Below are positions 8,370 through 45,806 of a DNA stretch of 64,000 bases, in pieces. Within the stretch, counting starts at the first letter, position 1; each line of letters begins with the position of its first letter. Both the position numbers and the translations under genes were made by a program. This stretch comes from Candidatus Daviesbacteria bacterium. Lineage in GTDB: Bacteria > Patescibacteriota > Microgenomatia > Daviesbacterales > UBA10151. Where the stretch lies: the NCBI GenBank assembly GCA_028712705.1, contig JAQTPP010000003.1:52-64051 (forward strand), given 5' to 3'. The notes under the pieces are model-generated. The model had not been told where the DNA came from. It did no database searches and was given only the letters and a program-made list of their open reading frames with translations.

Positions 8370-9152
8370 ATGAATTTAAACTTAAATAAAAGACAAAAAA
8401 TAGTTATTAGTTCAGTTTTATTAACTATAGGACTTCTTTCAACGCAACTGGTTGATTTTAATCTAAGATTTAGATTTTTGGGAGGGCTTGCGGTTTTCGC
8501 ATATATTCTTTCCTTCTGGTCTCTTTGGGAGGGTTTAAATGTAACCAAAGCATTTATGCTTTTGATTTTACCGACCTTTTTTACAGTGGCTGTCGCAAGC
8601 TTTTATTTTCTTTTGCCTGTGCGCTGGCTAACGAGACTGCCGGTAGCTTTTATATTTGGCCTGACTTTCTATCTGTTGCTTTTGGCGCAGAATGTATTTA
8701 ATGTGGCATCTTTGCGGACGATTCCTTTATACAGGGCGGCATCAACGGCGAGTTTCCTTTTTACGCTTCTTTCAGCTTTTTTTATATACCATGTAATTTC
8801 CGCTTTTAATTTATTTTTTCTGTGGAATGGGGTAGCGGTCATGGTAGTAAGTTTTTTATTAATTCTACAAGTGCTTTGGACTTTTAAAATGGAGGATACG
8901 ATTTCGGTAGCAATTATTATACAGAGTTTTGTCTTAAGTTTAATCCTGGGAGAGTTGGCCTTAAGTTTTTCATTTTGGCCGTCTCCGACAACAATTTGGT
9001 CGCTATCTTTATCTTCCGCCATGTATGTTCTTTTAGGTTTAACTACTCAGTACTTAAGGGATAAGATGACTAAGAGAATGATGTGGGAGTATTTGATTAT
9101 AGGGGCAATTGTACTTTTGGTTAGTTTTTTTACAACTTCATGGAACGGGTAA
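8370..9152 (+). CDS. Hypothetical polytopic membrane protein
   Basis: About 7 predicted TM helices. No motif. Confidence 0.5.
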   Translation: MNLNLNKRQKIVISSVLLTIGLLSTQLVDFNLRFRFLGGLAVFAYILSFWSLWEGLNVTKAFMLLILPTFFTVAVASFYFLLPVRWLTRLPVAFIFGLTFYLLLLAQNVFNVASLRTIPLYRAASTASFLFTLLSAFFIYHVISAFNLFFLWNGVAVMVVSFLLILQVLWTFKMEDTISVAIIIQSFVLSLILGELALSFSFWPSPTTIWSLSLSSAMYVLLGLTTQYLRDKMTKRMMWEYLIIGAIVLLVSFFTTSWNG

Positions 9153-9366
9153 ATATAATTCAAAGTTCAAAATTATATTGATAGAATAAGCTAAAGTAGG
9201 GAAGTGAGAGAGTTTACACTGAGCGATCCGGCGCAGCCGGAGAGTCGAAGTGTGAAAATTTTCTTTATTTTCGTGAAAAGAATAATTGATGTGGTTTGAT
9301 ATAGTCGACAGGTACGGAAGGCAAAAACTATGGGGTATGTTTTTCCAAAAATTAGGATCGATTCTC

Positions 9367-9434
9367 TGTCATTCTGGCTTGTCCAGAATCAAGATTCTGG
9401 TGTCAGTTGAAGTCTCAACTTCCCCAGAATGACA
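9367..9434 (+). repeat. MITE-like element, family 1 copy A (TIR TGTCATTCTGG...CCAGAATGACA)
   Basis: 68 bp with 11-13 bp terminal inverted repeats and internal palindromes. About 75% identical to copies at 11189-11258 (inverted) and 28931-28997. Confidence 0.7.
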
Positions 9435-10099
9435 TAGGATTGCATATTCTTTTAGCATGGTTTGTGGATAAGTGCTAAATAATACCGGACGTAGGTTTCC
9501 CGAAACCTAACGAAGCCTCCTGGAGAAGAGAGGTGCTTCTCTTTCTGCCTTTATGCAACCTTAATCAGATGTTTATTAGTAGAAATAGGTATGTTTATTC
9601 AGGTGCTGTTTCTGTAATACTCCTCTTTGCGAGAAAGGTTACAAACTTCCCTATATTTTGATGTCGCACAATATGTGAAACAGTAAAAAACGGAGAAGTG
9701 GTTTGGTTACCTACAGGTATGGCATTTAATCGGTAAGGGTACAAAAATAAGGAAAAATTTCATGTACTTAAATTATGGTAATTCCCGTCCAATTTTTCAG
9801 CCAATTTTATTCCATGAATTTTAAAATATCTAATAAGCAATTTAGGGCTTCATATAGAGCTAAAGTCTATATGAGATAACCTACGTCTTATCCCCTGAAA
9901 AGCCGTTTTTGGGCCATTTACGGGCCTCGTGTCTGGCTAGCCTCATTTGCATGCATCCAGCCCTGGCGGGGGTGAGGAAAAATCAAATCAGCAATTTCCA
10001 TAGCCAGACTATTGTGCATACTTATATTCTTCTCCCGCTATCGGCGGGATCAGAATGACAAATTCGCTGGAGAAAACTGAATTAATGCTACTTTAATGC

Positions 10100-10129
10100 T
10101 TGACAAGGCCTGCTTAATCTTGGTATTAT
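10100..10129 (+). promoter_or_regulatory. Sigma-70-like promoter TTGACA-N18-TATTAT upstream of the recombinase gene
   Basis: Consensus -35 and a near-consensus -10 seen directly. A second TATAAT lies at 10133-10138. Confidence 0.4.
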
Positions 10130-11138
10130 GAGTATAATCATTCAAACACTCATTATGTTAAGCTCGTCTATTGAAACAAAAAAGAAAATTCTCTTACCGT
10201 TATTTGATGAGTTTTTATTACATCTGCAAACCGATAACTACTCTCAAGAGACAATGTATAACTATGAACGCGATTTACTCACACTCACCTATTTTTTGGA
10301 ACATGAAGTACAAAAAGAGTTTGAACAAATAACTAAAGTGGATGTGGAACGTTATAAAGCATATCTTTTATCAACAGATCGCAAAACAGCGATTTCGGAA
10401 CAGGAAACTTCTTTAAAATTGCAAAGCGGCTCGATCAATAGGATACTGTCATCTTTTAGGAGTTATTTAAAATTTCTAATTTTTCAGGACTATAAAATAC
10501 CTGTTGTTCCAGAAAGCGTAAGGATGGTTCGTAAAGAGAAAAAGCATTATAAAGTAGCGGAGCTCAACGAATTAATATCATTAATTGAGTCACCTTCAAC
10601 TTTCGAAAAAAATTCTGTAGTAGCTACACGAAACCGAGCCATGTTAGAAGTACTGTTTGCAACAGGGATGAGAATATCGGAGCTTTTGTCTTTGAACCGT
10701 CGCGATATTGATTCATCCGGTAGAATTTTTATTATCGGTAAAGGTAAAAAAGAACGGTTTGTATATTTGACCGAACGGGCCAAATTTTATGTAGATAACT
10801 ATTTAAAACTTAGGAAAGATGCTCTTCCGGCGCTTTTTGTTCCCCAGAAAGGTAAAAGAATGGGCCAAAGGGATTGTCGAATATCTCCGAATTATTTACA
10901 AGCTAAAATCAAAAGTTATCGCGAAAAACTTGGTATTATTGTTCCAACAAGCGCCCATTCTTTGCGTCATGGTTTTGCTACATATTTGGCGGAAGAAGGT
11001 GCTTCTCCTGTGGCCATCCAGATGCTTTTGGGACACGAGTCATTAAATACTACTACCAGATATGTTAATGCTTCTGACCGGTTTGCCGAAGATTCACATA
11101 GACGGTATCATCCCCTGGCTGAAAGACCTGAAAAATAG
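10128..11138 (+). CDS. Tyrosine site-specific recombinase (XerC/XerD-like integrase)
   Basis: ATRNRAMLEVLFATGMRISEL ... HSLRHGFAT ... LLGHESLNTTTRYV give the R..H-R-H..Y catalytic set. The true start may be ATG 10158 (MLSSS). Confidence 0.85.
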   Translation: MSIIIQTLIMLSSSIETKKKILLPLFDEFLLHLQTDNYSQETMYNYERDLLTLTYFLEHEVQKEFEQITKVDVERYKAYLLSTDRKTAISEQETSLKLQSGSINRILSSFRSYLKFLIFQDYKIPVVPESVRMVRKEKKHYKVAELNELISLIESPSTFEKNSVVATRNRAMLEVLFATGMRISELLSLNRRDIDSSGRIFIIGKGKKERFVYLTERAKFYVDNYLKLRKDALPALFVPQKGKRMGQRDCRISPNYLQAKIKSYREKLGIIVPTSAHSLRHGFATYLAEEGASPVAIQMLLGHESLNTTTRYVNASDRFAEDSHRRYHPLAERPEK

Positions 11139-11188
11139 AAAGCCTGCTTTGTAATCGGAAATCTTAATTGATATAGTTTTAGGAAGAC

Positions 11189-11258
11189 TGTCATTCTGGG
11201 GAGCGTTAGCGACACCAGAACCGATCCCAGGTAGGATTCTGGACAAGCCAGAATGACA
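11189..11258 (-). repeat. MITE-like element, family 1 copy B (inverted orientation relative to copy A)
   Basis: tgtcattctgggg...ccagaatgaca. The reverse complement is nearly identical to the gyrB copy. Lies 50 bp downstream of the recombinase stop. Confidence 0.7.
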
Positions 11259-11384
11259 TGGATGGATAATAACACATTTTTCCGTTAACACTGCTTGCAG
11301 GGGTTGACTACGTTCAGTTAACATGACGTAGTTGACAAAGTTATATGATTTGGTCCACTATTAAAGAAAGGTTTATATTCTACG

Positions 11385-13685
11385 ATGGGAGCAATTTTAG
11401 ATTACTTCAAAAACGAAACAGGAAACTTGTTTCGCAATAAAAAAAATCTTGTTAGTCTGCTTGTTTTAGGTATACTTATTCTGGGTATTCCATTGGGTGT
11501 TAATCTTGTCAGGACGCAGCAAATTATTAAATCCCGCGCTGCTGTAGATCCAATTGTATTTACAGGTTCAAATGTTAGTAAAAAGAGTGATGGTACCTGG
11601 GTTACCACCAAGCCTCAGATTCAAGTTCAGCTCACTTCCCCGCTGGGTCCGGCCCAATCTTCTATTCAAACTGTGAAGTCAAAAGACTCATTAATAGGGG
11701 CTTTACCCAAAGGTTTGGTGGAAACTGTGTATGCAGCAGCAACTTGTTCTAATGGAACAAAAAATGTGGGAGATAAATGGCCTGAATGTCATGGTTGTGA
11801 TGAGGGTGTGGTAGAGTGTACAGGACAAGATACTTATGGCTGGACATCTGTCAAGAACCCATCTCCCAATTGTGGAGCAGGTTGTGGTGGAGGCGGAGGT
11901 GGTGTAACTAATGCGTGTAATCCTCCAGGAGTTGGTAGTGCCGAGGGATGTAGTGCTATGAAGAAATGTCCTAATGGTCAAGCCTGTGCATCAGGTCATA
12001 AGTATTGTGTTTGGGACGCAGGTGGTAATCATTGGGGAGATTGCCAGATAGAGATAGATAACTGTGCTACCCAGTGTGCTAGCAGTGGTACAAGTAAGGG
12101 TACTATAGATTGTAAAGCAACTTTTAAACCAAGCGAACTGGGGATTAATAGTCCAGGTGTATGCGACAGGCTACATGAATTCCGTGCTGATTGTAACCGC
12201 TGGTGTCCTCAAAATCCACAATATTATTCTAATCCTAACGAGGATTGTCCAAAAAATACAACCCCAAGTCAACAAGCCTTTATTAATCCTGCCACAAGTG
12301 CCTGGTGTTATGAATTTAAAGGTCCAGCAGGTGACACTCATAATAATAAATGTATGCAACTTTGGTATATTGGGACAGGGTCAGAGCCAAGCTGTGCTTC
12401 GGGAGAAGGTAGCGGTGGACCTGCCGGATGCCAGGGGCTGGATGCATGCAGTGAATGTGTTTTACTGAAAGAAACGAGTATTTTATATAAGTACGCAGAG
12501 TGGGGTTGGGATACAAACTGTAGTAACCAGGCAAAGATTGTTGCGGATTGGTGCAAGATTAATCCGAGCGGTTGCCAGGGTATTAGATCAGGCCAGTGCG
12601 CTTCAAGCTGTGGAGGAGCGTCTGCTACTTCGCCTTCTCCCTCTCCCGCCTCTTCTCCTCCTTCTACTTCAGCTCCTGCCTATACTAAGCAATTTAGGAT
12701 TGCGGAAAATCCGACTGATTTAGCTAGCGCTCCATGGCAGGATTATACAACTGTTGTTGCATCAAACCCGCTTGATTATACTTTCAAGGATGTAACACCG
12801 GGGCAGAAGTTTATCTTTGTGCAATTCATGGATTCTACCAATAAGGTAACCACTGCAGCCGATTGTCCGAAGTGTCAAGCCCAGATTAAACTGCTTGGGC
12901 CTGGTCCGGTTATGACTAGTTGTTCTTTGAGTTTTGAAGACAGCAAGACTACTCTGAATTTAACGGGGCAAAATTTTGGATCAGAAAAGGGTACAGTAAA
13001 AAGCGGTGATACTAATTTGGAAATAAAGTCATGGAGTAATAATAGCATTCAGGCGGTTTTGCAGAATGCGCAAACAGGACAAGTTTTGCCAATAACTTTC
13101 ACAAATACAGACGAACAAACAGGAACCGGCCAGTGCGGTGCTATTTCACAGCTTGCTTTAGGAGCCAGGGTTTTTTGCAGGGCGCCGGCTTCTCATGATA
13201 CGGAGAATGTAGATATGGTTCTGGTGGATGAAACAGGAAAAAAGACACGGCAAACAGTAAAGATCGATAAAAATGGAGTTGTCCAGGGGTTGACTCAAAA
13301 ATTAGAAGTCGGTAAGAGATATATTGTGTCACTTAAGGCGCCGAAATCGTTGCGGAGAATTGCCCGATTTACAGCTGGCGACGGCATAGTCAGCATCCCC
13401 AATTTCATTTTGCCTATTGGCGACATTTTCCCATTGGACGTTCGTGACGGTGCAATAAACCCTTTTGATCATGCACAATTAATCCGCGAGTTTATCATTG
13501 CTGAAGACAGCTGCGACAGACCCGGAGATTTTAATAGAGATTGCAGGGTTAATTCTATTGATTGGGCTTGTATGAGATATGATTTCGGTCAAGTGGATGA
13601 TCCGGAACCAACAGTTTCGTCCTTTGTCACAACCGCCAGTCCAAACCCAACCGCAAGTTCTAGTTCTAGTTCTTCGCCGTTATGA
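11385..13685 (+). CDS. Large secreted Cys-rich surface protein with Ser/Pro linker, TIG/IPT-like region and C-terminal dockerin-like domain
   Basis: N-terminal signal-anchor. About 40 Cys in residues 100-420. Linker SPSPSPASSPPSTSAP. The C-terminal LDVRDGAINPFD...GDFNRDCRVNSID matches the duplicated DxNxDGxxNxxD dockerin Ca-loop pattern. Poly-Ser tail. Confidence 0.7.
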   Translation: MGAILDYFKNETGNLFRNKKNLVSLLVLGILILGIPLGVNLVRTQQIIKSRAAVDPIVFTGSNVSKKSDGTWVTTKPQIQVQLTSPLGPAQSSIQTVKSKDSLIGALPKGLVETVYAAATCSNGTKNVGDKWPECHGCDEGVVECTGQDTYGWTSVKNPSPNCGAGCGGGGGGVTNACNPPGVGSAEGCSAMKKCPNGQACASGHKYCVWDAGGNHWGDCQIEIDNCATQCASSGTSKGTIDCKATFKPSELGINSPGVCDRLHEFRADCNRWCPQNPQYYSNPNEDCPKNTTPSQQAFINPATSAWCYEFKGPAGDTHNNKCMQLWYIGTGSEPSCASGEGSGGPAGCQGLDACSECVLLKETSILYKYAEWGWDTNCSNQAKIVADWCKINPSGCQGIRSGQCASSCGGASATSPSPSPASSPPSTSAPAYTKQFRIAENPTDLASAPWQDYTTVVASNPLDYTFKDVTPGQKFIFVQFMDSTNKVTTAADCPKCQAQIKLLGPGPVMTSCSLSFEDSKTTLNLTGQNFGSEKGTVKSGDTNLEIKSWSNNSIQAVLQNAQTGQVLPITFTNTDEQTGTGQCGAISQLALGARVFCRAPASHDTENVDMVLVDETGKKTRQTVKIDKNGVVQGLTQKLEVGKRYIVSLKAPKSLRRIARFTAGDGIVSIPNFILPIGDIFPLDVRDGAINPFDHAQLIREFIIAEDSCDRPGDFNRDCRVNSIDWACMRYDFGQVDDPEPTVSSFVTTASPNPTASSSSSSSPL

Positions 13686-13729
13686 TGAATTTGGACTGGT
13701 AAAAGTTCGGTAATTGTAGTACAAAATAT

Positions 13730-14362
13730 ATGTATATGGATGATTTAAATGTACAACAAAATAATCAGGAGAATAAGCCTGTAGTGCAAATAAAAAAATT
13801 TGTTTCTCTTCCCAAATTTATTTTTTTGGTTTTAGGATTGATACTTTTGGCGGAATTAATATATGCAATTCGGGTATTAACGTTGCCTGCTCCCCCGGTT
13901 GCAGGTAAGGTTCCACTACAATCAAAAGTGGGGACAATTTCATTAAATGCTCCCAAAAACACATATCGGATAAATGAAATTGTGCCTGTTGCCGTGAATA
14001 TTGAGACGGGTTCACAAGCAATAAATGGGGTTGATGTCATAATACATTATGATCCTAAAGTTCTTGAGGCTACTTCCGGAGGACTAATCAAAGGCCGTCT
14101 TCTTGAGGAATATCCGACTATGGCTGTGGATGCGAGTAAAGGTTTGATCTCTATTTCGGGTATCAACAGTTTGCAGAACGTGTTTAAGGGTAAAGGACAA
14201 TTTGCAAACATAAATTTTAAAGCTAAAACTGCCTCCGGGAAGACATCATTGACTGTTGATTTTAAGGATAAAGGGTCTACTATAGATTCCAACCTGGTAG
14301 AGGCTAGTACAGCTAAAGATATAGTCGAACAGGTTGTAAATTTGGAGCTTGTTGTGCAATGA
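13730..14362 (+). CDS. Cohesin-domain-like protein, N-terminally membrane-anchored
   Basis: N-terminal TM helix, then a beta-rich domain (VNIETGSQAINGVDVIIHYDPKVLEA...GKGQFANINFKAK) resembling cohesin modules. Confidence 0.55.
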   Translation: MYMDDLNVQQNNQENKPVVQIKKFVSLPKFIFLVLGLILLAELIYAIRVLTLPAPPVAGKVPLQSKVGTISLNAPKNTYRINEIVPVAVNIETGSQAINGVDVIIHYDPKVLEATSGGLIKGRLLEEYPTMAVDASKGLISISGINSLQNVFKGKGQFANINFKAKTASGKTSLTVDFKDKGSTIDSNLVEASTAKDIVEQVVNLELVVQ

Positions 14363-15105
14363 TAAAATATGCGATTTCTTTTTTTGCGTTTGTCTTATGG
14401 TTTTTAGTTTCTCCGACCGGAGTTTTTGCCCAGGTGGCCACTTTATCCTTGGATCCGGCCACAGGCACATTTAACAGAAACTGCCCTTTCTCTCTAAATA
14501 TTAATCTTGATACAGGCGGAGCCCAAACAGATGGTACTGATGCAATTTTATTTTATGATTCCTCCAGGCTTAGCATTACTACCAGTTCGATTACTTCAAA
14601 TACAGTCGTGTATCCTGACTTTCCCGGTAATAATGTAGATGAGGCCGCAGGCAAAATTACCATTTCAGGACTTGCTTCTGTGGCGACGCCTTTTACCGGC
14701 AAAGGTACTCTGGCTACCTTGAATTTTACAGTGAAAGATTCGGCGCCCACCGGAGCAACTCAAATTACTTTTGACTTTGATCCCAATAATAAAGCTAAAA
14801 CTACGGATTCCAATGTTGTACAACGGGCAACAATAGTAGATATATTAAACTCGGTCGTAAACGGAAATTATACGGTTGGAACCGGAACCTGCGGTACTAC
14901 CACCCCATCGGCATCCCCGATTGCAGTTGTTTATAAACCAACAGGAAGTTCAACAACGTCTACTCCGTCAGCAACCATTGCGGCGCCCCTGCCAACTAAA
15001 AAGACAGTTCTGCCTCCGGCCGGTTCAGAACAGCTTACTTTTACTGTAGCAATTTTTGGAGGGGTTTTAACTGTACTGGGAATTTTGGGATTAGCGCTTC
15101 TTTAG
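14359..15105 (+). CDS. Cohesin-domain-like surface protein with signal peptide, Thr/Ser-rich stalk and C-terminal TM anchor
   Basis: Signal peptide ending VFA-QVA. Cohesin-like FNRNCPFSLNINLDTG...ILFYDSSRLS...GKGTLATLNFTVK. ST-rich linker. C-terminal hydrophobic anchor. Confidence 0.55.
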   Translation: MIKYAISFFAFVLWFLVSPTGVFAQVATLSLDPATGTFNRNCPFSLNINLDTGGAQTDGTDAILFYDSSRLSITTSSITSNTVVYPDFPGNNVDEAAGKITISGLASVATPFTGKGTLATLNFTVKDSAPTGATQITFDFDPNNKAKTTDSNVVQRATIVDILNSVVNGNYTVGTGTCGTTTPSASPIAVVYKPTGSSTTSTPSATIAAPLPTKKTVLPPAGSEQLTFTVAIFGGVLTVLGILGLALL

Positions 15106-15119
15106 TTCAAAATTCAAAT

Positions 15120-16025
15120 ATGTCCTTATCCTCTCTTATCACAGATTTTCTGGAATATCTGGAACTTGAGCGAAATGCCTCACGGTTAACAATCAGAAAT
15201 TACGATCATTATCTAAAACGATTTTTAGAATTTATCCGTTCGACAGGCTCAGGACAGGATGGTGATATAAACCCGCAGGATATAACCTTAAGCTTAGTTG
15301 GAAAATACAGACTATACCTTTCCAGATGGACGGATCCGAAAACCAAAGAACCCTTAAAAAGAGTGACTCAAAATTATTTTATGATAGCTCTGCGAACACT
15401 CCTCCGCTATCTGGCAGGAACTGGTGTGCAAACGCTTTCGGCCGAAAAAGTTGAATTAAGAAAGAATAATTCCAGGCTTCCTCTTAAAGTGTTGGATGAG
15501 ACTCAACTTAGATTACTCCTTAAAGCTCCGGATACAAGTAAAAAAGATGGACTGCGGGATCGGGCAATCCTGGAGACATTGTTTTCTACAGGTCTGCAAG
15601 TATCTGAACTGGTCGGATTAAACCGTGGTACCATCAACCTGGAAGGATGTGAGTTTAGTATAGTTGGTAAAGGAGGAAAACAGCGGGGGGTATTTTTATC
15701 TGACGGTGCTTGTGAGTTTCTAGGAAAGTACTTAGCAATCCGTCAAGACAAATTTAAACCTCTTTTTATCCGTTTTCAGGGTAAAATTGATCCAGCTAAC
15801 GAAGGTGAAGCTATGAGGCTGACTTCCCGTTCCATTGAACGGATTGTAGAAAAATATGCAAAAAAGCTGAGAATTTCCATCAAAGCTACACCACAAACAC
15901 TGCGTCATTCTTTTGCCGCAGATTTGTTAATTAACGGAGCAGATATGCGGTTAGTTCAGAAGATGCTTGGACATTCCAATATCTCAACTACTCAAATTTA
16001 CCGCCTCTGCTCCGGTAAATTGTAA
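15120..16025 (+). CDS. Tyrosine recombinase XerC/XerD family
   Basis: LSLSSLITDFLEYLELERNAS N-terminal SAM-like domain. RDRAILETLFSTGLQVSEL, LRHSFA, LGHSNISTTQIY. Short C-terminus after the catalytic Tyr. Confidence 0.85.
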   Translation: MSLSSLITDFLEYLELERNASRLTIRNYDHYLKRFLEFIRSTGSGQDGDINPQDITLSLVGKYRLYLSRWTDPKTKEPLKRVTQNYFMIALRTLLRYLAGTGVQTLSAEKVELRKNNSRLPLKVLDETQLRLLLKAPDTSKKDGLRDRAILETLFSTGLQVSELVGLNRGTINLEGCEFSIVGKGGKQRGVFLSDGACEFLGKYLAIRQDKFKPLFIRFQGKIDPANEGEAMRLTSRSIERIVEKYAKKLRISIKATPQTLRHSFAADLLINGADMRLVQKMLGHSNISTTQIYRLCSGKL

Positions 16026-16403
16026 TCACTTTGTTAGTTTCCCTAAATCTTTCAATACCGCATTTAAGATTGTTGCGACAATTGATAAAACAATTGCTGC
16101 CAATATGGCTGGAAGCCATCCTTCAATCTTTACTCCCGGCACCACTGCTGCCACTATGAATAAGACCACTGCATTGACCACAAAAGCAAACAACCCTAAA
16201 GTAACAATTGTTAAGGGTGCGCTTAGAAAGCTTAGGATTGGCTTAATAAAAGTATTAACCACCCCCAAAACTATGGCCGCAAAAATGGCTGTAGTAAAGT
16301 TTTCAACCCGGAATCCAGGTACAATATTAGCCGTTAAAAGCAATGCTGCCGCATTTAAGACCAAGGCTATAAGAATTTGCAAATTTCTCACCCCCCTCTT
16401 CAC
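16026..16403 (-). CDS. Phage-holin-4-like / DUF360 (YvlD-type) small membrane protein
   Basis: 125 aa, four TM helices, GF(R/W)VE..FTTA pattern. Abuts the recombinase stop with no spacer. Confidence 0.6.
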   Translation of the reverse strand: MKRGVRNLQILIALVLNAAALLLTANIVPGFRVENFTTAIFAAIVLGVVNTFIKPILSFLSAPLTIVTLGLFAFVVNAVVLFIVAAVVPGVKIEGWLPAILAAIVLSIVATILNAVLKDLGKLTK

Positions 16404-16428
16404 TTAATAGTGAATCAAATTTTTTAAA

Positions 16429-18783
16429 ATGTCAATGTTTTCTGTTAAACTTAAGATTATGAAATATCCTGCCGAAAAAATTGGATTGACTTCTCATCAG
16501 GCCGGGGAACAGCTAAAAAAATATGGTTTAAATGAGCTGCCGCAGAGAAAAACAACTTCTGCTGCGGAGATTTTCCTGCGGCAGATGAAAACCCCCTTTG
16601 CCTACCTGCTTTTGGGAGCTACCGTTCTTTCGGCCATCATCGGTGATAAATTGGACAGCTTTTTAATCGGCGGGATTTTAGTTTTAAATTCAATTTTGGG
16701 TTTTTGGCAGGAATATAAAGCTTCCAAAGAGCTGGAAGAATTGCGGAAACTGGAGGTGGAATATGCCAGAGTGGAAAGAGGCGGTAAGCAGATGGAAATT
16801 CCCTCATCAGAGATTGTCCCCGGGGATATTGTAATTTTAGAATCCGGCGACAGGATTCCGGCAGACGGGCAAATCTTAGAGAGTTATGCTTTGCAGGTTA
16901 ATGAATCTGTCTTAACAGGCGAATCCTTACCTGTTACTAAATCTGTGAAAAAGGAGGAAAACTTAGTCTTTTTTGCCACCACCGTTGCCTCCGGCCGAGG
17001 CAAGGTTCTTATTTTGCAGACAGGGGCAAGAACTAAATTCGGCGCCTTAGCAGAAACTTTAAGCAGTATTGAAGACGAACAAACTCCTTTTGAAAAAGCT
17101 CTGGCTTCCTTTAGTAAAGTCCTGGGGTTGGGGGCCTTAGCGGTTTCAGCCCTGATTTTTATTTTAAGGATATTGCAGGGTTATGATATGTCTTCCACTC
17201 TTCTTTTCAGCATTGTTTTAATGGTAGCTGTAGTGCCGGAAGGTTTGCCTGCCGTAGTAACTATAATTTTGGCCTTAGGCATGCGGAAGATATACAGGAA
17301 AAAGGCTTTGGTTAGAAAGATGATTGCGATTGAGTCTTTGGGTACTGCTACAGTAATTTGTACGGATAAGACCGGAACTTTAACTAAAAATGAAATGCGG
17401 GTTAAAGAGGTCAGTATTAAAGATACCAAAGAAGCAGATTTTCTAAAATGTGCGGTATTTTGTAACAGCGCCAGTTTGATATTGAAAGAAGATGGAGGCA
17501 GTTTTGATATTTTTGGCGATACAACTGAGGGTGCTCTCTTGCTTTGGGCAAAAAATCAAGGCAAGGATATTGATCTGATGAGATTGCAAGGCAAACTCAT
17601 TGAAGAAATTCCTTTTAATTTGGAAACCCGGAAAATGACTGTTTTATGGGAAGAGGGTAAGATAAAAACAGAATATGCTAAAGGCGCTCCGGAAGTTTTA
17701 CTTTTTGAGTCTGAGTTGTCCGAAGCGGATCAAAAGAAGTGGGAATTTAGGTATCAGCAAATGGCTAAAAAAGGACTACGGGTGTTGGCGTTTTCAAAGG
17801 ATAAAGAGTTTTTAGGGTTAGCGGGGATTGCTGATGAGGTCCGTCCCGAGGTAAAAGAAGCTATTGCGCTGACAAAGCAGGCCGGGATTAAGGTAGTGAT
17901 GGTGACCGGCGATAATGAGCTGACAGCTGGAAGCATTGGTGAAGAGGTTGGGTTATTATCCTCTGGTGATGAAATTATGGTTGGCAGTCAGCTAAACGCC
18001 TTAAGCGAAGAAGATCTTTTACAAAGAATCGGTAAAGTCAAAATTTTTGCCAGGATTACTCCGCAGGAGAAACTTAGAATTGTTAAAGCTTATCAAAGCT
18101 TAGGAGAGGTAGTAGCTGTGACAGGTGACGGGGTAAATGACGTGTTGGCCTTAAAACAAGCAGAAGTCGGGGTTTCCATGGGTAAAATCGGCACTGATGT
18201 GTCAAAAGAAGCCTCAGATATTATTTTGCTTGATGATAACTTTGCGACCCTGACTGTGGCCATTGAGCAAGGAAGACTAATTTACAACAATATCTTAAAA
18301 GTCATTAAGTTTTTACTTGCCGGGAATTTGTCGGAAATGCTTTTGATAGGAGTAGCAGCAATTTTCGGTCTGCCGTCGCCGCTTCTGCCAATTCAGATTC
18401 TCTGGATCAATTTTGTCACAGACGGACCTCCTGCTCTGGCTTTGGGTTTTGATAACGCTTCAAGGCACCTGATGCAAATACCACCCCGCAAGAAATTAGG
18501 TTTACTTAGTAAAGATTCTCTACATTTTATCATTTTCGGCGGGGTGGCAATTTCTGCTTTTTGTTTTTTTGCTTTTTATTTTACCTTTGAAAGTTTAGGG
18601 CTTCAAACTTCCAGAGCCATCACCTTTACCGTTATGATTATTCTGCAAATGATCCTGCCTTTTATTATGAGAAGACATCACGGGATTTTATCCAATAAAA
18701 AGCTTTTTATCTCAGTTGCTGTAGTTATTTTGGTACAAATTTTGATTATTGCGTATCCTCCCTTAAGGACACTTTTCTTTTAA
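16429..18783 (+). CDS. P-type cation-transporting ATPase (type II, Ca2+/Mg2+-like)
   Basis: ICTDKTGTLT phosphorylation motif, TGDN, VTGDGVNDVLAL hinge. About 8 TM helices. The start may be the internal Met at 16459. Confidence 0.85.
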   Translation: MSMFSVKLKIMKYPAEKIGLTSHQAGEQLKKYGLNELPQRKTTSAAEIFLRQMKTPFAYLLLGATVLSAIIGDKLDSFLIGGILVLNSILGFWQEYKASKELEELRKLEVEYARVERGGKQMEIPSSEIVPGDIVILESGDRIPADGQILESYALQVNESVLTGESLPVTKSVKKEENLVFFATTVASGRGKVLILQTGARTKFGALAETLSSIEDEQTPFEKALASFSKVLGLGALAVSALIFILRILQGYDMSSTLLFSIVLMVAVVPEGLPAVVTIILALGMRKIYRKKALVRKMIAIESLGTATVICTDKTGTLTKNEMRVKEVSIKDTKEADFLKCAVFCNSASLILKEDGGSFDIFGDTTEGALLLWAKNQGKDIDLMRLQGKLIEEIPFNLETRKMTVLWEEGKIKTEYAKGAPEVLLFESELSEADQKKWEFRYQQMAKKGLRVLAFSKDKEFLGLAGIADEVRPEVKEAIALTKQAGIKVVMVTGDNELTAGSIGEEVGLLSSGDEIMVGSQLNALSEEDLLQRIGKVKIFARITPQEKLRIVKAYQSLGEVVAVTGDGVNDVLALKQAEVGVSMGKIGTDVSKEASDIILLDDNFATLTVAIEQGRLIYNNILKVIKFLLAGNLSEMLLIGVAAIFGLPSPLLPIQILWINFVTDGPPALALGFDNASRHLMQIPPRKKLGLLSKDSLHFIIFGGVAISAFCFFAFYFTFESLGLQTSRAITFTVMIILQMILPFIMRRHHGILSNKKLFISVAVVILVQILIIAYPPLRTLFF

Positions 18784-28705: not shown

Positions 28706-30769
<2,064 letters not shown>

Positions 30770-32155: not shown

Positions 32156-33874
32156 ATGCCCAGTAATCTTGCCCAAAATCCGTCCGGTTCTACGCTGGAG
32201 GAGATCCTTTTTAAAGAAGGGTTGATAAGCTCAGATCAGGTTTCTGCAATAAAGCTGGAAAGTATTAATTCCGGTATCCCGGTGGAAAAAATCTTAATTC
32301 AGCGGAATTTGGTGCCGAACAACAAAATAGCTCAAGCCAAAGCACAGATTTTAAATGTTCCTTATATTTCCCTGGCCGGCCGGGCCATTGCGGCAGATGT
32401 CTTAAATTTAGTGCCGGAAGTTGCAGCCCGCCGTTATCAAATAATTCCATTTGAAAAAAAGGGAGAAGAATTATGGGTGGCAATGGCAGATCCTTTAGAT
32501 ATCCAGATTACTCAATTTGTCGAAAAAAGGACCGGACTTAGAGTGAAGCCGTATTTGGCGCTTGCAGAAGACATCCTGCAGGATATCTCAGATCAATATG
32601 CTCAAAACTTAACTTCAGAAGTAACTTCTGCGCTCAAGGAAGTTGCAGCTGTTAGGCCAATGAAAGAGGTTCAAGTTGGACCCGAGATCTTACGCGAGGC
32701 GCCTGTTTCCAACATTATTGACCAGCTTTTAGAATATGCCATAAAAAATAGGGCCTCTGATGTCCATATCGAGCCTCAAGAAAACAGAACCAGGGTTAGG
32801 TATAGGATAGACGGGATTTTACAAGAGAAAATTCTTCTTCCAAAAGGCGTGCATGATGCGCTTGTTTCAAGAATTAAAATCCTTGCCGTTTTGAAAATTG
32901 ATGAAAAACGTCTGCCCCAGGATGGCAGGTTTACTTTTACCTATGGACAAAATATTGTAGATCTTAGGATTTCCACAGTGCCGACTGTATTCGGAGAGAA
33001 AGTAGTTTTGAGGTTGCTCCCCAAATCAACAGGTGCGCCATCGCTTTTGGAATTGGGTCTGAGAGGAGCTTCTCTTAAAGCTTTGGAAAGCCAATTGCTT
33101 CGCGCGCATGGCATCATCCTGGTTTGCGGACCAACCGGTTCCGGTAAAACCACAACACTTTATTCAATTTTAACCAAGATATCAACCACCAGGGTGAATG
33201 TGGTAACGATTGAAGATCCGGTTGAATACCAGATTCCCGGAGTTAATCAGGTTCAAGTCAATACCGGCGTCGGCTTAACTTTTGCATCGACCTTACGAAG
33301 CTTTTTAAGGCAAGATCCGAATATCATAATGGTTGGTGAGATAAGAGATACCGAAACTGCGGAGTTGGCAATACAGGCGGCGCTAACAGGTCATCAAGTG
33401 TTTTCTACTGTTCATACGAATTCCGCAGCCGGTGCGCCTCCCAGGCTTTTGGATATGGGAGTTGAACCTTTTTTGTTGACGTCTGCTCTAAATGCTATTG
33501 TTGGACAAAGAGTTGTCAGGAAAATTGATCCGCATTGTAAGGTGGAATTTAATGCTCCCCCGGAAGTAATCGGCAATATTAAACAAGTTTTAGGAAAATT
33601 TATTCCGCAATCCCAATCGGCAAATATGAAATTATACAAGGGTAAAGGATGCAGTTTTTGCGGTAATACCGGATATTTAGGCAGGATTGGAATATTTGAA
33701 GTTTTAAGTTTAACAGACAAAATATCCAAGCTAGTCTTAGAGCATACCTCATCCGGCGTAATTGAAGAAGCTGCTGTGGGAGAAGGTATGATCACGATGA
33801 AACAGGATGGTTATATGAAAGTATTGGAGGGTATAACTACCATGGAAGAAGTCCTGAGAGTGGCCCAGGATTAG
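32156..33874 (+). CDS. pilB: Type IV pilus assembly ATPase PilB (GspE family)
   Basis: N-terminal T2SSE_N domain. LVCGPTGSGKTTTLYS Walker A. Tetra-Cys CSFCGNTGYLGR. Confidence 0.9.
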   Translation: MPSNLAQNPSGSTLEEILFKEGLISSDQVSAIKLESINSGIPVEKILIQRNLVPNNKIAQAKAQILNVPYISLAGRAIAADVLNLVPEVAARRYQIIPFEKKGEELWVAMADPLDIQITQFVEKRTGLRVKPYLALAEDILQDISDQYAQNLTSEVTSALKEVAAVRPMKEVQVGPEILREAPVSNIIDQLLEYAIKNRASDVHIEPQENRTRVRYRIDGILQEKILLPKGVHDALVSRIKILAVLKIDEKRLPQDGRFTFTYGQNIVDLRISTVPTVFGEKVVLRLLPKSTGAPSLLELGLRGASLKALESQLLRAHGIILVCGPTGSGKTTTLYSILTKISTTRVNVVTIEDPVEYQIPGVNQVQVNTGVGLTFASTLRSFLRQDPNIIMVGEIRDTETAELAIQAALTGHQVFSTVHTNSAAGAPPRLLDMGVEPFLLTSALNAIVGQRVVRKIDPHCKVEFNAPPEVIGNIKQVLGKFIPQSQSANMKLYKGKGCSFCGNTGYLGRIGIFEVLSLTDKISKLVLEHTSSGVIEEAAVGEGMITMKQDGYMKVLEGITTMEEVLRVAQD

Positions 33875-33881
33875 AAATTAA

Positions 33882-34934
33882 ATGAACATACAACAATTAT
33901 TAGATTTAACTATTCAAAGAAATGCTTCTGATTTACATTTATCTGTCGGATCTCCGCCTATCCTCCGGATACATGGCGATCTTTTTCCCGTACCTGGTGA
34001 AGTACCCACTACTCCGGAACAAATTGATAGCTTGATTCAACCTCTTCTCTCAGATATTCAAAAAAATATCTATAAACAAGTTTTTGAACTTGATTTTTCG
34101 TTTGAATTTGAATCTAAAGCTAGATTTCGGGTTAACCTGTATAGACAAAAAGGTTACCCGTCGGCGGCTTTGCGGCTTATTCCCTATCGCATACCGGAAG
34201 TTGAAGAATTGGGTTTTCCTTCCGTTGTCAACCGTCTGATAGATTTAAAGCAAGGTTTTATTTTAGTGACCGGACCGACCGGTCACGGTAAATCCACGAC
34301 TTTAGCTTCATTTATAAATAAGATTAACAAGACCCGGGCAGTCCATGTCCTTACCGTTGAAGACCCAATTGAATATATGTATCCTCCGGGAAAATCTTTG
34401 ATTGAACAAAGGGAAATGTACTCTGACACAAGATCCTGGGGAAATGCCCTGCGTTCAGCTTTACGGGAAGATCCGGATGTAGTTTTAATCGGTGAAATGA
34501 GGGATTTAGAAACTATATCTTCAGCTATGACTATTGCAGAGACCGGTCATTTGGTTTTTGCAACTCTTCACACAAATTCATCTACGCAATCTATTGACCG
34601 GATTATTGATGTTTTTCCCGAAATACAACAACCACAAATCAGGCTTCAGCTGGCATCGACCCTGGAGGCAATTCTGTCGCTTCGTCTGGTTCCGACCATT
34701 GAACCGGGAAGGATTTTGGCATCTGAAATATTATTCACTACTCCTGCCGTAAGGAATATTATTCGCGAGGCAAAGACATATTTGATAGACAATATTATTG
34801 AAACATCCGCAGAACTTGGGATGCAAACTCTTGAGCGCTCTCTTGCTGTTTTGGTAAAAGCAGGGAAAATTTCCCAGGAAGTGGCATTGAAATTTGCTCT
34901 GCGTCCAGAATTATTAAGCAAGCTTTTGAAATAG
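33882..34934 (+). CDS. pilT: Twitching motility retraction ATPase PilT
   Basis: ASDLHL, ILVTGPTGHGKSTTLAS, and AIRNLIRE-like C-terminal motif. Confidence 0.9.
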   Translation: MNIQQLLDLTIQRNASDLHLSVGSPPILRIHGDLFPVPGEVPTTPEQIDSLIQPLLSDIQKNIYKQVFELDFSFEFESKARFRVNLYRQKGYPSAALRLIPYRIPEVEELGFPSVVNRLIDLKQGFILVTGPTGHGKSTTLASFINKINKTRAVHVLTVEDPIEYMYPPGKSLIEQREMYSDTRSWGNALRSALREDPDVVLIGEMRDLETISSAMTIAETGHLVFATLHTNSSTQSIDRIIDVFPEIQQPQIRLQLASTLEAILSLRLVPTIEPGRILASEILFTTPAVRNIIREAKTYLIDNIIETSAELGMQTLERSLAVLVKAGKISQEVALKFALRPELLSKLLK

Positions 34935-34938
34935 CTGT

Positions 34939-36138
34939 ATGGAATTTATCTACAAAGCAAAGGATATACAGGGTCAGGAGCACGCCGGCAGTGTTAAATC
35001 TCCCGATGCTCATTCTGCTGCTGTGACTATACGAAAGGAAGGTCTGATTGTTATTTCACTATCTCCTAAAACGCCTCCTGTAAACAGATTGCTAGACCGT
35101 TTTATAAATAGGGTAAGCTTTTCTGAAGTAGTTATTTTTACCAGACAGCTGGCAACAATGGTAAGCAGCGGATTAGTTTTATCAGAAGCGATAGATATTC
35201 TGGAAGATCAGCAAACCAATAAAAATCTGAAGAAAGCTTTGAATGACATTTCCCAGGACATCAAAGGAGGTTTAACGCTGGCACAAGCTTTTAGTAAATA
35301 TCCTGATATTTTTCCCCATCTTTATGTTAATTTAATTAAGGCCGGTGAGGCCTCCGGAAAGCTTGATTCTATTCTTTTACAGATGGCTGACGGGTTGGAG
35401 AAAGAAAGAGAATTTCAAGCAAAAATTAAAGGAGCAATGATCTATCCGGTGTTAGTTTTATCTATGATGCTGGTAGTGCTTGTTATAATGATGATTTTTG
35501 TTATCCCGAAGCTTTTAACTTTGTATTCTCAATCAACAATGGAATTGCCGTTGCCTACCAAAATACTGATTGGTATGTCAAATCTTTTTGTGAACTATTG
35601 GTGGTTGGGACTTATTATTTTAATTGGAGGATACATTGGGATAGACAGATGGAAACGGACCCCCGAAGGTAATCTTTTCTTAGGCAAATTGATTCTAAGA
35701 ATCCCAATTGCGGGCAAGGTTGTGGCAAATGTTGCACTGACAAATTTCAACCGTACGTTTGGGCTGCTGATTTCTGCAGGTATACCATTACTTGATTCTA
35801 TTGGTATAGTATCGGATTTAATGGATAATCCCGTGTTTAAAAATGCGCTCAAAGAAAGTTATTCCGGAGTAGAAAAAGGACTGCCGTTTTCTTCTCTTCT
35901 TACAGCCAATATTTTCCCAAAAATTATCAGCCAGATGGTTAGAGTGGGTGAAGAAACAGGAAAAGTAGATGAAATATTTTTTAAGCTGGCCGACTATTTT
36001 GAATCTGAATCAGACCATATGGTTAAGAATTTGACTGTAGCAATCGAGCCAATTGTTTTGATAATTTTGGGTATAGGAGTGGCATTCCTGGTAATCTCGA
36101 TTATCTTACCGATTTACAAATTAACCACGTCATTTTAA
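34939..36138 (+). CDS. pilC: Type IV pilus platform protein PilC (GspF family)
   Basis: Two T2SSF repeats and three TM helices. Confidence 0.9.
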   Translation: MEFIYKAKDIQGQEHAGSVKSPDAHSAAVTIRKEGLIVISLSPKTPPVNRLLDRFINRVSFSEVVIFTRQLATMVSSGLVLSEAIDILEDQQTNKNLKKALNDISQDIKGGLTLAQAFSKYPDIFPHLYVNLIKAGEASGKLDSILLQMADGLEKEREFQAKIKGAMIYPVLVLSMMLVVLVIMMIFVIPKLLTLYSQSTMELPLPTKILIGMSNLFVNYWWLGLIILIGGYIGIDRWKRTPEGNLFLGKLILRIPIAGKVVANVALTNFNRTFGLLISAGIPLLDSIGIVSDLMDNPVFKNALKESYSGVEKGLPFSSLLTANIFPKIISQMVRVGEETGKVDEIFFKLADYFESESDHMVKNLTVAIEPIVLIILGIGVAFLVISIILPIYKLTTSF

Positions 36139-36150
36139 TCAAGATGCTAC

Positions 36151-36181
36151 TTGACTAAGCATTAGAAGTTGTGGATACAAT
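36151..36181 (+). promoter_or_regulatory. Candidate promoter TTGACT-N19-TACAAT upstream of major pilin gene
   Basis: Seen directly. RBS GGGGGTGAG and a TTG start follow. Confidence 0.3.
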
Positions 36182-36203
36182 GTATGTGAGGGGGTGAGAA
36201 ATT

Positions 36204-36734
36204 TTGAAAAAATCTGCTCATGGTTTCACATTAGTGGAACTTTTGGTTGTTATTGCAATTATTGCCATATTGGCAGCAGTCGTTGTTTTAATTATTAACC
36301 CGTTAGAGCTTACCCGTAGAGGTCGTGATGCGGCCAGACTTACTGATTTGTCAAATTTACAGCAAGCAATTAACGTGGCAGTTCAGGAAGCAACCGGATC
36401 TGCGGCTACTATTCTTTGCAGCGGCGATAGTGCGCCATGTAATGGGTTAAGCAATATAGCTGGCAGGGGTTCTGATGGAACAGGCTGGGTGAAGGTTGAT
36501 ATGTCTTCTCAGAAGAGCGTGTCGGTACCCACCTTACCAATAGATCCGATTAATGATGCGACAAATCATTACATATATTGTTCAGACGGCAATGCCTGGG
36601 AGATTGATGCAAAACTGGAATCAACACAGCAATCAGGCAAGATGTTACCTGATGGTGGAGATGATCCAGTATTGTATGAGGTCGGTTCTAATTTGAAGCT
36701 TACTTCTCCTTCGGGAGGAACTTGTACTTATTAA
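36204..36734 (+). CDS. Type IV pilin (prepilin N-terminal cleavage/methylation domain); probable major pilin
   Basis: MKKSAHGFTLVELLVVIAIIAILAAV is a class III signal. TTG start. Own promoter. Confidence 0.8.
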   Translation: MKKSAHGFTLVELLVVIAIIAILAAVVVLIINPLELTRRGRDAARLTDLSNLQQAINVAVQEATGSAATILCSGDSAPCNGLSNIAGRGSDGTGWVKVDMSSQKSVSVPTLPIDPINDATNHYIYCSDGNAWEIDAKLESTQQSGKMLPDGGDDPVLYEVGSNLKLTSPSGGTCTY

Positions 36735-36738
36735 CGCT

Positions 36739-37659: not shown

Positions 37660-37732
37660 TACAACTAGTTTACATAATTGTATCTTGACAAACAGTTTAG
37701 TTTGTATGAATAATAAATTAACGAAATAACTA

Positions 37733-38152: not shown

Positions 38153-38157
38153 CCTTA

Positions 38158-38646: not shown

Positions 38647-38690
38647 AAGGAATGTACAACGTACAATTAACAATGTACAATTAAAGCAAG

Positions 38691-40328: not shown

Positions 40329-40360
40329 GTTGATTGACAATTTAGGAGAAAAAACTGACA

Positions 40361-45233: not shown

Positions 45234-45255
45234 TGGCTGACGGCTAGTTAAAAAT

Positions 45256-45795: not shown

Positions 45796-45806
45796 GCCAT
45801 AATAAC

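Follow-up and report, generated by a model that had tools for sequence, protein, structure and literature searches.

A conserved cohesin-dockerin gene triad and candidate surface-display operon in the chromosome of Candidatus Daviesbacteria

Within 64,000 nucleotides of contig JAQTPP010000003.1 (hereafter the window, meaning this whole stretch of DNA), from a genome of Candidatus Daviesbacteria, a lineage of the Microgenomates group of Patescibacteria, or Candidate Phyla Radiation (CPR), we analysed three adjacent genes encoding a modular secreted protein with a predicted dockerin, BIG, and two cohesin proteins, Coh1 and Coh2, together with the two recombinase genes on either side, Xer1 and Xer2. 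A preliminary description of this DNA had proposed a minimal cohesin-dockerin gene set, a proposal that stands in that its domain calls hold and the triad keeps strict synteny in all related loci of sufficient length. We regard BIG-Coh1-Coh2 as probably a non-cellulosomal operon for cohesin-dockerin surface display, located in the core chromosome of Daviesbacteria. The five genes are arranged as follows:

10128-11138, + strand: Xer1, Xer-like tyrosine recombinase, from the list of open reading frames (ORFs), Pfam and NCBIfam; likely start at 10155
11385-13685, + strand: BIG, 766-amino acid (aa) modular secreted protein, from its ORF and the Pfam families TIG and Dockerin_1
13730-14362, + strand: Coh1, 210-aa single-cohesin protein with an N-terminal membrane anchor, from Pfam Cohesin and a transmembrane (TM) scan
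14359-15105, + strand: Coh2, 248-aa cohesin protein with a C-terminal hydrophobic helix, from Pfam Cohesin and the TM scan
15120-16025, + strand: Xer2, Xer-like tyrosine recombinase and constant downstream neighbour, from Pfam and NCBIfam

Domain content of BIG, Coh1 and Coh2

The preliminary description had placed five ORFs here, all on the + strand, and all five were recovered at those positions. BIG is 100% identical to a protein from a Daviesbacteria metagenome-assembled genome (MAG) at NCBI, annotated as 'IPT/TIG domain-containing protein', and the exact sequence of Coh1 has no database record. The intergenic distances are 44 nt between BIG and Coh1, -4 nt between Coh1 and Coh2, where the start overlaps the stop, and 14 nt between Coh2 and Xer2, and no terminator-like site on the + strand was found in the spacers between these four genes. 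This tight spacing and the lack of such a site make co-transcription plausible, and BIG-Coh1-Coh2 are probably co-transcribed with Xer2. The GC content is 0.41-0.43 across the locus, the same as in the remainder of the window, which carries core-chromosome genes including those for YebC, RuvC, the CPR-typical DUF5656, GyrA, a P-type ATPase, ATP synthase, RNase III and TrmD, as well as a type IV pilus cluster. The one dockerin of BIG and the two cohesins of Coh1 and Coh2 are the full set of such domains within the 64-kb window.

Both Coh1 and Coh2 exceed the Pfam Cohesin cut-off (PF00963, 24.1 bits), with 41.9 and 29.9 bits, respectively. Precomputed PF00963 matches are present in nearly all of their orthologues, which already carry the NCBI name 'cohesin domain-containing protein', and the two families comprise 60 homologues for Coh1 and 764 for Coh2. 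In Coh1, a TM segment at residues 21-55 precedes the cohesin at residues 74-194 (nt 13949-14311). Coh2 begins with a signal-like segment at residues 1-24, which ends in VFA and is followed by Q, and continues with the Pfam cohesin at 59-141, a Thr/Ser/Pro stalk at 175-215 and a C-terminal hydrophobic helix at 225-248. The earlier suggestion of two anchored, cohesin-like proteins is borne out by these matches and by the anchors visible in the TM scan. When a profile of the Coh1 family was compared with PDB sequences, the best matches, all weak, were the type II cohesins 3l8q_A (2.7e-4) and 5g5d_A (1.7e-3), the latter being the partner chain of the X-module-dockerin (XDoc) structure 5g5d_B, which was matched by the model of BIG described below.

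BIG is a mosaic of conserved and variable parts, which we delimit as follows:

11691-12614, + strand: BIG residues 103-410, Cys-rich variable head with 30 Cys, from Cys positions and comparison with the locus of the closest relative (L007)
11691-12104, + strand: BIG residues 103-240, swapped hypervariable segment, from comparison with L007
12420-12614, + strand: BIG residues 346-410, six-Cys helical module of about 58 aa, a tandem repeat unit in other secreted proteins
12684-13415, + strand: BIG residues 434-677, conserved stalk with an Ig-like (434-505), a TIG (508-582) and an X-module-like (585-677) beta domain
13416-13589, + strand: BIG residues 678-735, dockerin, from Pfam family-level matches and the AlphaFold model

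The sole hydrophobic segment in a Kyte-Doolittle scan of BIG lies at residues 19-44 (nt 11439-11516) and would be either a Sec signal or a signal-anchor. BIG contains 38 cysteines, 30 of them within residues 121-409; further on, residues 412-432 form an SP-rich linker, residues 508-582 a TIG domain (25.7 bits, Pfam cut-off 20.9) and residues 758-764 a poly-Ser tail; the Cys-rich region, the linker, the TIG-like domain and the tail were all located where the preliminary description had put them. The same is true of two tandem dockerin-like loop motifs, LDVRDGAINPFD at residues 684-695 and GDFNRDCRVNSID at 714-726.

Whereas the Cohesin and TIG families were matched above their Pfam cut-offs, as that description had anticipated, the expectation for the third family, Dockerin_1 (PF00404, cut-off 22.9 bits), held in part. 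Full-length BIG reached 16.5 bits with repeat 2 alone matched, which counts against the dockerin, and the excised dockerin segment reached 23.8 bits. Because the whole-protein score fell below the cut-off, the dockerin was examined at the family level, using an alignment of 23 C-terminal segments of BIG homologues. PF00404 was matched by 22 of the 23 family members (best E = 1.4e-10), and the family profile matched the solved type I dockerin 2y3n_B with E = 1.3e-7 over both repeats (query 8-68, target 7-65 of 71) and the Clostridium thermocellum CelS dockerin 2mte_A with E = 2.6e-6. From these alignments, the dockerin assignment is clear at the family level and borderline for the single sequence.

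The weak score of the single sequence is attributable to a 4-residue insertion in Ca2+ loop 1 of the clade to which the window belongs. Loop 1 reads GDIFPLDVRDGAINPFD and includes this clade-specific insertion (IFPx; IFPL in BIG), while a distant member of the family, P0024, keeps the canonical GDLNGDGIINTVD. Loop 2 is the canonical DFNRDCRVNSID, and in it (D715-F-N-R-D-C-R-V-N-S-I-D726) all canonical Ca2+ ligands are present (D1, N/D3, D5, N/D9, D12). In loop 1, D1, D5, N9 and D12 are kept, and position 3 is occupied by Val.

An AlphaFold model of BIG residues 434-745 (pLDDT, the predicted local distance difference test score, 87.6) comprises three beta domains and, after them, one helix at BIG residues 693-701 and another at 724-731 (model residues 260-268 and 291-298), so that two tandem loop-helix repeats in the dockerin are supported by both the profile alignment and the model. 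In Foldseek searches with this model, the best PDB matches were the CipA Coh9-X-DocII fragments 4fl4 and 3kcp (E ~ 1e-7), and XDoc dyads were also matched, namely 5g5d_B (E = 1.4e-5, target-normalised template modelling (TM) score 0.53) and 2b59_B (4.6e-5, 0.55); these are matches at the level of the fold only, with 13-19% sequence identity. Two cysteines of this region, Cys598 in the X-module-like domain and Cys729 in the dockerin, are invariant. With these as its best structural matches, the modelled C-terminus of BIG looks like an X-module-dockerin dyad of the kind found in cellulosomal anchoring scaffoldins.

Conservation of the triad and variation of the BIG head

Related loci were obtained by exact-protein look-ups and a scan of one genome per species, yielding 41 distinct loci (47 with duplicates) from about 35 species, and were annotated with the window proteins and domain hidden Markov models. 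All sampled loci come from Daviesbacteria-like MAGs and were retrieved via BIG, so that genomes without the module could not appear among them. Some (L009, L010, L013, L015, L017, L018, L022, L023 and others, from binchicken assemblies) are titled 'uncultured Gammaproteobacteria bacterium', yet carry Daviesbacteria synteny; given the DUF5656/BIG/cohesin synteny that they share, these titles seem to be placeholders or errors of labelling.

In all 41 Daviesbacteria loci the triad occupies the same site, between YebC-RuvC-DUF5656 and Xer2-holin-like-ATPase-GyrA. The common gene order is YebC-RuvC-DUF5656-(~1 kb noncoding)-(±Xer1)-(1-3 dockerin proteins)-Coh1-Coh2-Xer2-holin-like(-)-(ATPase)-GyrA(-). 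BIG, Coh1 and Coh2 are adjacent in all of the ~30 loci long enough to show them, the last dockerin protein is followed by Coh1-Coh2-Xer2 in every locus of sufficient length, and this adjacency holds although the proteins have diverged to 30-50% identity.

Several relatives carry more elaborate versions of the locus. In L040, the arrangement is BIG-Coh1-BIG-Coh1-Coh2, with a duplicated BIG-Coh1 pair; in L022, L028, L031, L037 and L041, there are proteins that combine a dockerin with a cohesin, an adaptor-scaffoldin architecture; and where relatives have a second dockerin protein, it is often accompanied by an extra cohesin. This co-variation of dockerins and cohesins is the strongest indirect evidence that the BIG dockerin and the neighbouring cohesins are cognate partners, and the existence of relatives with adaptors or a duplicated BIG-Coh1 pair places the minimal system of the window at the simple end of a series that extends to more elaborate assemblies.

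The same observations bear on the alternative that the cohesin-like and dockerin-like domains are not mutual partners and that BIG, Coh1 and Coh2 are three independent envelope proteins that have stayed together in a small genome through operon inertia, with, for example, the cohesin folds binding glycans or other partners and the dockerin being no more than a fold stabilised by Ca2+. For many cohesin and dockerin modules outside cellulosomes, no partner has been demonstrated (Peer et al. 2009, as cited in PMC9012536), which this alternative would accommodate, as it would the non-canonical dockerin loop 1 and the weak sequence matches of Coh1 and Coh2 to solved cohesins. It does not readily account for an adjacency that is invariant over such diverged proteins, for the co-duplication of BIG with Coh1 in L040, for the appearance of dockerin-plus-cohesin adaptors exactly where a second dockerin protein arises, or for an XDoc-like fold, which is a dedicated cohesin-binding dyad, and we consider it unlikely.

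While the triad as a whole is strictly syntenic, BIG itself is unevenly conserved. In BLAST comparisons with BIG homologues, the N-terminus (residues ~1-140) and the C-terminal ~310 residues (434-744) are conserved and the Cys-rich middle is not; the stalk at 434-677 is conserved in all homologues. Between the window and its closest relative, L007, ten neighbouring genes have 94-100% aa identity compared to 79% for BIG, and the ratio of nonsynonymous to synonymous substitution rates (dN/dS) is 0.36 for the whole BIG gene compared to 0.04-0.23 in its neighbours. The difference is concentrated in the head: residues 1-100 and 440-766 are 97-100% identical, the N-terminal ~100 aa being common to paralogues as well, but residues ~121-240 are just 16-34% identical. 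Relative to L007, residues ~103-240 represent a module replacement inside the BIG head. Regarding diversification of the head by a diversity-generating retroelement, a repeat scan of positions 9000-17000 gave no support, with no search aimed at a reverse transcriptase.

An exhaustive HMMER search with the head (BIG 93-411) as query returned 73 matching clusters among 1.84e9 representatives. The C-terminal part of the head is a 58-aa helical module with six cysteines, not described before, with the consensus C-x2-C-[VI]-L-x2-R-x-D-[IV]-L-P-F-Y-x3-G-W-D-T-S-C...D-W-C-x-I-D-P-x-G-C...C-x3-C. This module forms tandem arrays in secreted proteins (P0209-P0272) that also contain Peptidase_M23, 3D, M4 peptidase, F5/8-type-C and CBM (carbohydrate-binding module) domains, and it is modelled as a four-helix fold (pLDDT 95) without a PDB neighbour. 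Changes from Cys to other residues at two of its positions (WC/GC) appear to go together, which hints at a disulfide between them.

Flanking recombinases, mobile elements and the upstream noncoding region

XerC and XerD were the top-scoring NCBIfam models for both recombinases, Xer1 scoring 186.5 (XerC) and 173 (XerD) and Xer2 scoring 197 and 196.9, and all NCBIfam Xer cut-offs were missed (335 and 330 for the equivalogs). Xer1 has the complete R-K-H-R-H-Y catalytic set, which is kept in all Xer1 orthologues, and the gene is present in 15 of 26 informative loci and absent from the position in the other 11. The strongest sigma-70-like site of the region (TTGACA-18-TATTAT at 10100-10129, 11/12, with TG) overlaps the first ATG of the Xer1 ORF, and the gene call of a relative's Xer1 begins at the second Met; taken together, these observations indicate that translation of Xer1 probably starts at M10 (position 10155), giving a protein of 327 aa and a very short leader.

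The catalytic residues of Xer2 were read from an alignment with 32 orthologues. Most of these have the full set together with an XerD-like LGHSNISTTQIYTHV box, but Xer2 of the window reads Q-K-Q-R-H-Y, with Q160 at Arg-I (15597-15599) and Q259 at His-II (15894-15896), both encoded by CAA, and its C-terminus is altered. Xer2 of the closest relative has Leu at Arg-I and Gln at His-II, and several other Xer2 genes are truncated. Given a dN/dS of 0.15 between the window and L007, indicating purifying selection, Xer2 of the window is not obviously a decaying pseudogene. Another Xer gene lies upstream in all 8 loci with a damaged Xer2 (in one case as a gene fragment) compared to 7 of 18 loci with an intact Xer2 (Fisher p = 0.007, uncorrected for shared ancestry). 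This suggests that Xer1 and Xer2 are functionally redundant rather than an obligate XerC/XerD pair.

It might nevertheless be supposed that the two recombinases are the XerC/XerD pair for chromosome-dimer resolution, with the triad lying between them by happenstance. The best scores of both genes against the XerC and XerD models, the LGHSNISTTQIYTHV box and full catalytic set of most Xer2 orthologues and the fixed chromosomal position of Xer2 are all in keeping with this idea. However, scores of 173-197 bits are far below the equivalog cut-offs of 330-335, Xer1 is missing at about 40% of loci, Xer2 is degenerate or truncated in 8, all with another Xer upstream, and no dif site was identified for the pair. 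This pattern of loss is easier to reconcile with two redundant single recombinases than with an obligate heteromer. We consider the XerC/XerD interpretation doubtful.

Single-recombinase Xer systems include XerS/difSL, XerH/difH and the archaeal XerA. Xer1 and most Xer2 proteins resemble these in having R-K-H-R-H-Y, and either gene may be lost or degenerate when the other is present, as expected if one recombinase suffices; they differ in that no dif site has been identified here and in scoring below every NCBIfam Xer cut-off. To our knowledge, Gln at both Arg-I and His-II under purifying selection is not a described state for either single-recombinase Xer or XerC/XerD systems.

The preliminary description had also noted copies of a miniature inverted-repeat transposable element (MITE) near the module. 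This element and the noncoding region upstream are located as follows:

9153-10127, + strand: conserved noncoding region of about 1 kb upstream of the module, with collinear blocks in at least 19 Daviesbacteria loci
11189-11258, no strand: MITE-like palindromic element in the Xer1-BIG spacer, with sister copies at 9367-9434 and 28931-28997

The palindromic element of ~70 nt is real, with 8 matches to its terminus compared to 0.97 expected by chance. This MITE/REP-like element is bounded by inverted repeats of 11 nt that match perfectly, TGTCATTCTGG/CCAGAATGACA, with further inverted repeats nested inside, and the three copies just listed are the full copies in the window. Two of them, in opposite orientation, bracket Xer1 rather than the triad. 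The copy at 11189-11258 is the only one shared with the closest relative (L007 8453-8519), the copy at 9367-9434 is inserted in the conserved noncoding gap and is missing from that relative, and none of the other loci contains the element. An IS200-like Y1 transposase gene was also observed in the window at 55020-55730, far from the module, and in L005 at 1606-2280.

From the recombinases and MITEs, the preliminary description had suggested that the three genes are a mobile or variable surface-protein island, a model in which the unit would be excisable and have its borders set by these flanking elements. The triad does lie between two same-strand Xer-like genes, MITE copies are present at 9367-9434 and 11189-11258, and in one relative (L003/L004) an rve_3 transposase is found directly upstream of BIG. 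The comparison of loci for presence or absence, however, found the unit in 41 of 41 loci (sampled via BIG), at the same chromosomal position and with the same flanks in about 35 species. A search of positions 9000-17000 for direct or inverted repeats at the unit borders returned only matches of chance size and the small MITE, with no direct repeats resembling attachment (att) sites and no long inverted repeats; no tRNA, tmRNA or Rfam match was found in the window, and none in 9100-11400 at E <= 1; and there is no GC anomaly. Xer1 is absent in 11 of 26 informative loci that retain the triad, and Xer2 of the window lacks the two catalytic residues Arg-I and His-II. The MITEs, being limited to this sub-lineage and flanking Xer1, do not bound the unit. 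The reading of the triad as a mobile island is largely refuted and in our view highly improbable. BIG-Coh1-Coh2 is an ordinary chromosomal operon, and the recombinases on either side of it are Xer-like genes of the chromosome that do not mark the borders of an island. What survives of the claimed variability lies inside the dockerin-protein gene and in its copy number, and none is seen at the level of an island. In L003/L004, where the rve_3 transposase precedes BIG, the gene order usually found upstream (YebC-RuvC-DUF5656) is replaced.

The gap of ~0.9-1.2 kb between the DUF5656 gene and Xer1 or BIG is conserved in Daviesbacteria (L007, L010-L045) whether or not Xer1 is present. Its blocks are collinear and have 70-90% nucleotide identity where the proteins are ~50% identical, and no ORF of at least 50 aa was found in 9153-10127. 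Among its features are two CGTGAAAA repeats and TGATATAGT, an invariant AAGCCGTTTT, a conserved single DnaA-box-like TGTGGATAA at 9463-9471 and a conserved quasi-palindrome around GATGTCGCACAATAT (9660-9674), laid out as ATATTTTG-ATGTCG-CACAATAT at about 9652-9674. With its 8-6-8 layout, this quasi-palindrome was considered in the search for a dif site, but it could equally be a promoter or operator. In a hairpin, GTTTAGGnn...nnCCTAAAC, 79.5% of cells are paired, 3 pairs are changed on both sides and G·U pairs favour the + strand; RNAalifold found no consensus structure in the conserved gap block. The gap may encode a structured RNA or serve as a complex control region. A second candidate helix was dropped (14.7% paired), and an origin of replication (oriC) was rejected for the gap, given a single DnaA box and a box count in the window near chance (25 found, 18 expected).

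Xer-like recombinases act at the Mycoplasma surface-lipoprotein loci vpma and vsa, and by analogy Xer1 (or Xer2) might swap or rearrange BIG cassettes, producing antigenic or phase variation. The variation between loci does fall in the zone from DUF5656 to Coh1, which holds 1-3 BIG paralogues with or without Xer1; a head module has been replaced between close relatives, and a conserved quasi-palindromic motif in the upstream gap, TGTCGNACAAT, occurs again just before BIG in some loci. On the other hand, BIG paralogues are all on one strand in every locus, no repeated recombination sites were found around BIG or its head in the window, where TGTCGNACAAT occurs only once, and loci without Xer1 (L031, L034, L037, L041) contain multiple diverged BIG genes. 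Homologous recombination through the conserved flanks explains the head swap equally well. We regard a role for the recombinases in BIG variation as very unlikely.

A proposed surface-display system and its relation to known modules

If the triad is a surface-display operon, BIG would be exported via its N-terminal hydrophobic signal, and its X-module-like domain and dockerin would bind, in a Ca2+-dependent manner, the cohesin of Coh1 and/or Coh2. Coh1 would be held in the membrane by its N-terminal helix, and Coh2, at the end of its Thr/Ser/Pro stalk, by the C-terminal LPxxG motif and hydrophobic tail. The Ig-like stalk of BIG would then push the disulfide-stabilised, Cys-rich head outward from the cell. 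The head would be the ligand-binding, fast-evolving part of the system, most likely acting as an adhesin towards the envelope of a host cell or another surface.

Several observations weigh against this proposal. Besides the Dockerin_1 score of full-length BIG, dockerin loop 1 is without the canonical Asn/Asp ligand at position 3, although the inserted D685 might serve as a substitute. A profile of the Coh2 family recovered no solved cohesin among PDB sequences, with one spurious weak match only. The last residues of Coh2 are GILGLALL, and neither Arg nor Lys follows the hydrophobic helix, as in the 40 orthologue tails examined. Searches by phmmer with SrtA as query, a scan for TLxTC and Pfam on 20 ORFs revealed no sortase in the 64-kb window or the 47 loci, a negative that is uninformative, as it covers 64 kb and these loci. 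BIG itself may stay anchored in the membrane, as its long hydrophobic N-terminal segment (about 21 aa) is followed by a conserved stretch of ~60 aa, in which case docking to cohesins of the same cell would be geometrically odd; an uncleaved BIG may be tethered at both ends, or its dockerin may engage cohesins on another cell. Finally, the adhesin role of the head is argued from analogy and from the company kept by the Cys module.

Concerning the attachment of Coh2, the motif LPPAG is found at residues 218-222 (nt 15010-15024), and LPxxG is present in 109 of 120 orthologues. With this conserved motif, yet no basic tail and no sortase in the window or loci, a sortase-type anchor appears possible but unproven; the match of Coh2 to an NCBIfam LPXTG-type model has an E of only 0.96. 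A literature search for sortases in Patescibacteria found nothing directly relevant.

The sca genes of Ruminococcus flavefaciens are adjacent in one cluster. In that species, the N-terminal part of CttA carries binding modules, and its C-terminal XMod-Doc docks on the sortase-anchored cohesin of ScaE (PMC4266597). In this complex (PMC4266597), and by our proposal in the Daviesbacteria set as well, a secreted protein with N-terminal binding modules and a C-terminal XDoc pairs with a single-cohesin partner that is fixed to the envelope through a C-terminal LPXTG-type signal. The genes lie next to each other in both cases. The geometry is also alike, with the BIG head distal and the XDoc proximal, and with the stalk, LPPAG and hydrophobic tail of Coh2. 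In contrast with CttA, BIG has no carbohydrate-binding modules or context of carbohydrate-active enzymes, but instead a variable Cys-rich head with a helical module new to description, and there is a 4-aa insertion in its dockerin loop 1. Further differences are the additional, N-terminally anchored cohesin protein Coh1, a Coh2 tail lacking the basic residues expected where a sortase signal is canonical, the failure to find a sortase nearby, and a host that is a member of the Patescibacteria, not a Firmicute.

A second parallel is with Clostridium (Acetivibrio) thermocellum, in which CipA X-DocII pairs with the type II cohesins of SdbA, OlpB or ScaC, and CipA X-DocII structures were the top structural matches of the BIG C-terminal model. 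The Coh1 profile matches, which include 5g5d_A and 3l8q_A (A. cellulolyticus ScaB), likewise point to type II cohesins. As in the CipA system, the role predicted here, by analogy, would be anchoring and not enzyme recruitment. The anchors of the CipA system use S-layer homology (SLH) domains, however, whereas TM helices or LPxxG would serve here, and the docked partner there is a nine-cohesin, enzyme-carrying scaffoldin, whereas BIG has no cohesins. With single-cohesin proteins, one dockerin protein in the window and no glycoside hydrolase or CBM in BIG, the locus should not be classed as a cellulosome.

Outside cellulosomes, cohesins and dockerins are known to occur widely (Peer et al. 2009, as cited in PMC9012536), and the latter source suggests roles for them in surface attachment or cell-cell interaction. 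The modules of Archaeoglobus fulgidus and of anaerobic methanotrophic (ANME) archaea described there resemble the present ones in that single or few cohesins and dockerins, and no large scaffoldin, occur in organisms that do not degrade cellulose (PMC9012536). Here, in contrast, an adjacent triad that is invariant across a whole candidate phylum provides an explicit hypothesis as to the partners, and the dockerin protein has a hypervariable head.

The kind of protein involved is already known, since public annotation flags the cohesin domains, and we found no literature linking cohesins or dockerins with CPR bacteria or Daviesbacteria. As far as the literature found goes, the new elements are a phylum-wide invariant triad in a CPR lineage, an XDoc-like dyad whose loop 1 carries an insertion, a pair of anchors with opposite topologies, and a hypervariable Cys-rich head that includes the six-Cys module.

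About 17 kb downstream of the module lies the type IV pilus cluster (~32156-46505), with genes for a prepilin peptidase (36739-37659; A24_N_bact and Peptidase_A24), a pilin with an N-terminal methylation motif (39705-40328) and PilO (45807-46505), and a PilX_N-like match at 40361-41248 that is weak (19.7 bits, below the cut-off). Its proximity is relevant because type IV pili are the only well-supported attachment device of CPR bacteria.

Should the domains of the triad not bind each other, an ordinary pair of annotated cohesin-domain proteins would remain. In any case, the locus offers a natural example of redundancy and decay of Xer recombinases in a reduced genome. The locus also supplies a new small, disulfide-rich helical module and, if the domains do bind, a divergent cohesin-dockerin pair that could be of use for protein-assembly engineering. 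At its most far-reaching, the module would be the host-attachment apparatus of Daviesbacteria, a phylum-wide, expandable scaffold with interchangeable disulfide-rich heads for the host cell wall, the heads consisting partly of a four-helix module shared with CPR cell-wall hydrolases and the upstream element of ~1 kb being a new structured RNA or control region; in this full form we hold the proposal to be speculative and rather unlikely. According to PMC11623550, how ultrasmall CPR bacteria/Patescibacteria recognize and attach to their hosts is largely unknown beyond type IV pili. The BIG-Coh1-Coh2 locus is a concrete candidate for such attachment, its small soluble domains can be tested in vitro without cultivation, and the diversity of its hypervariable head could track host range.

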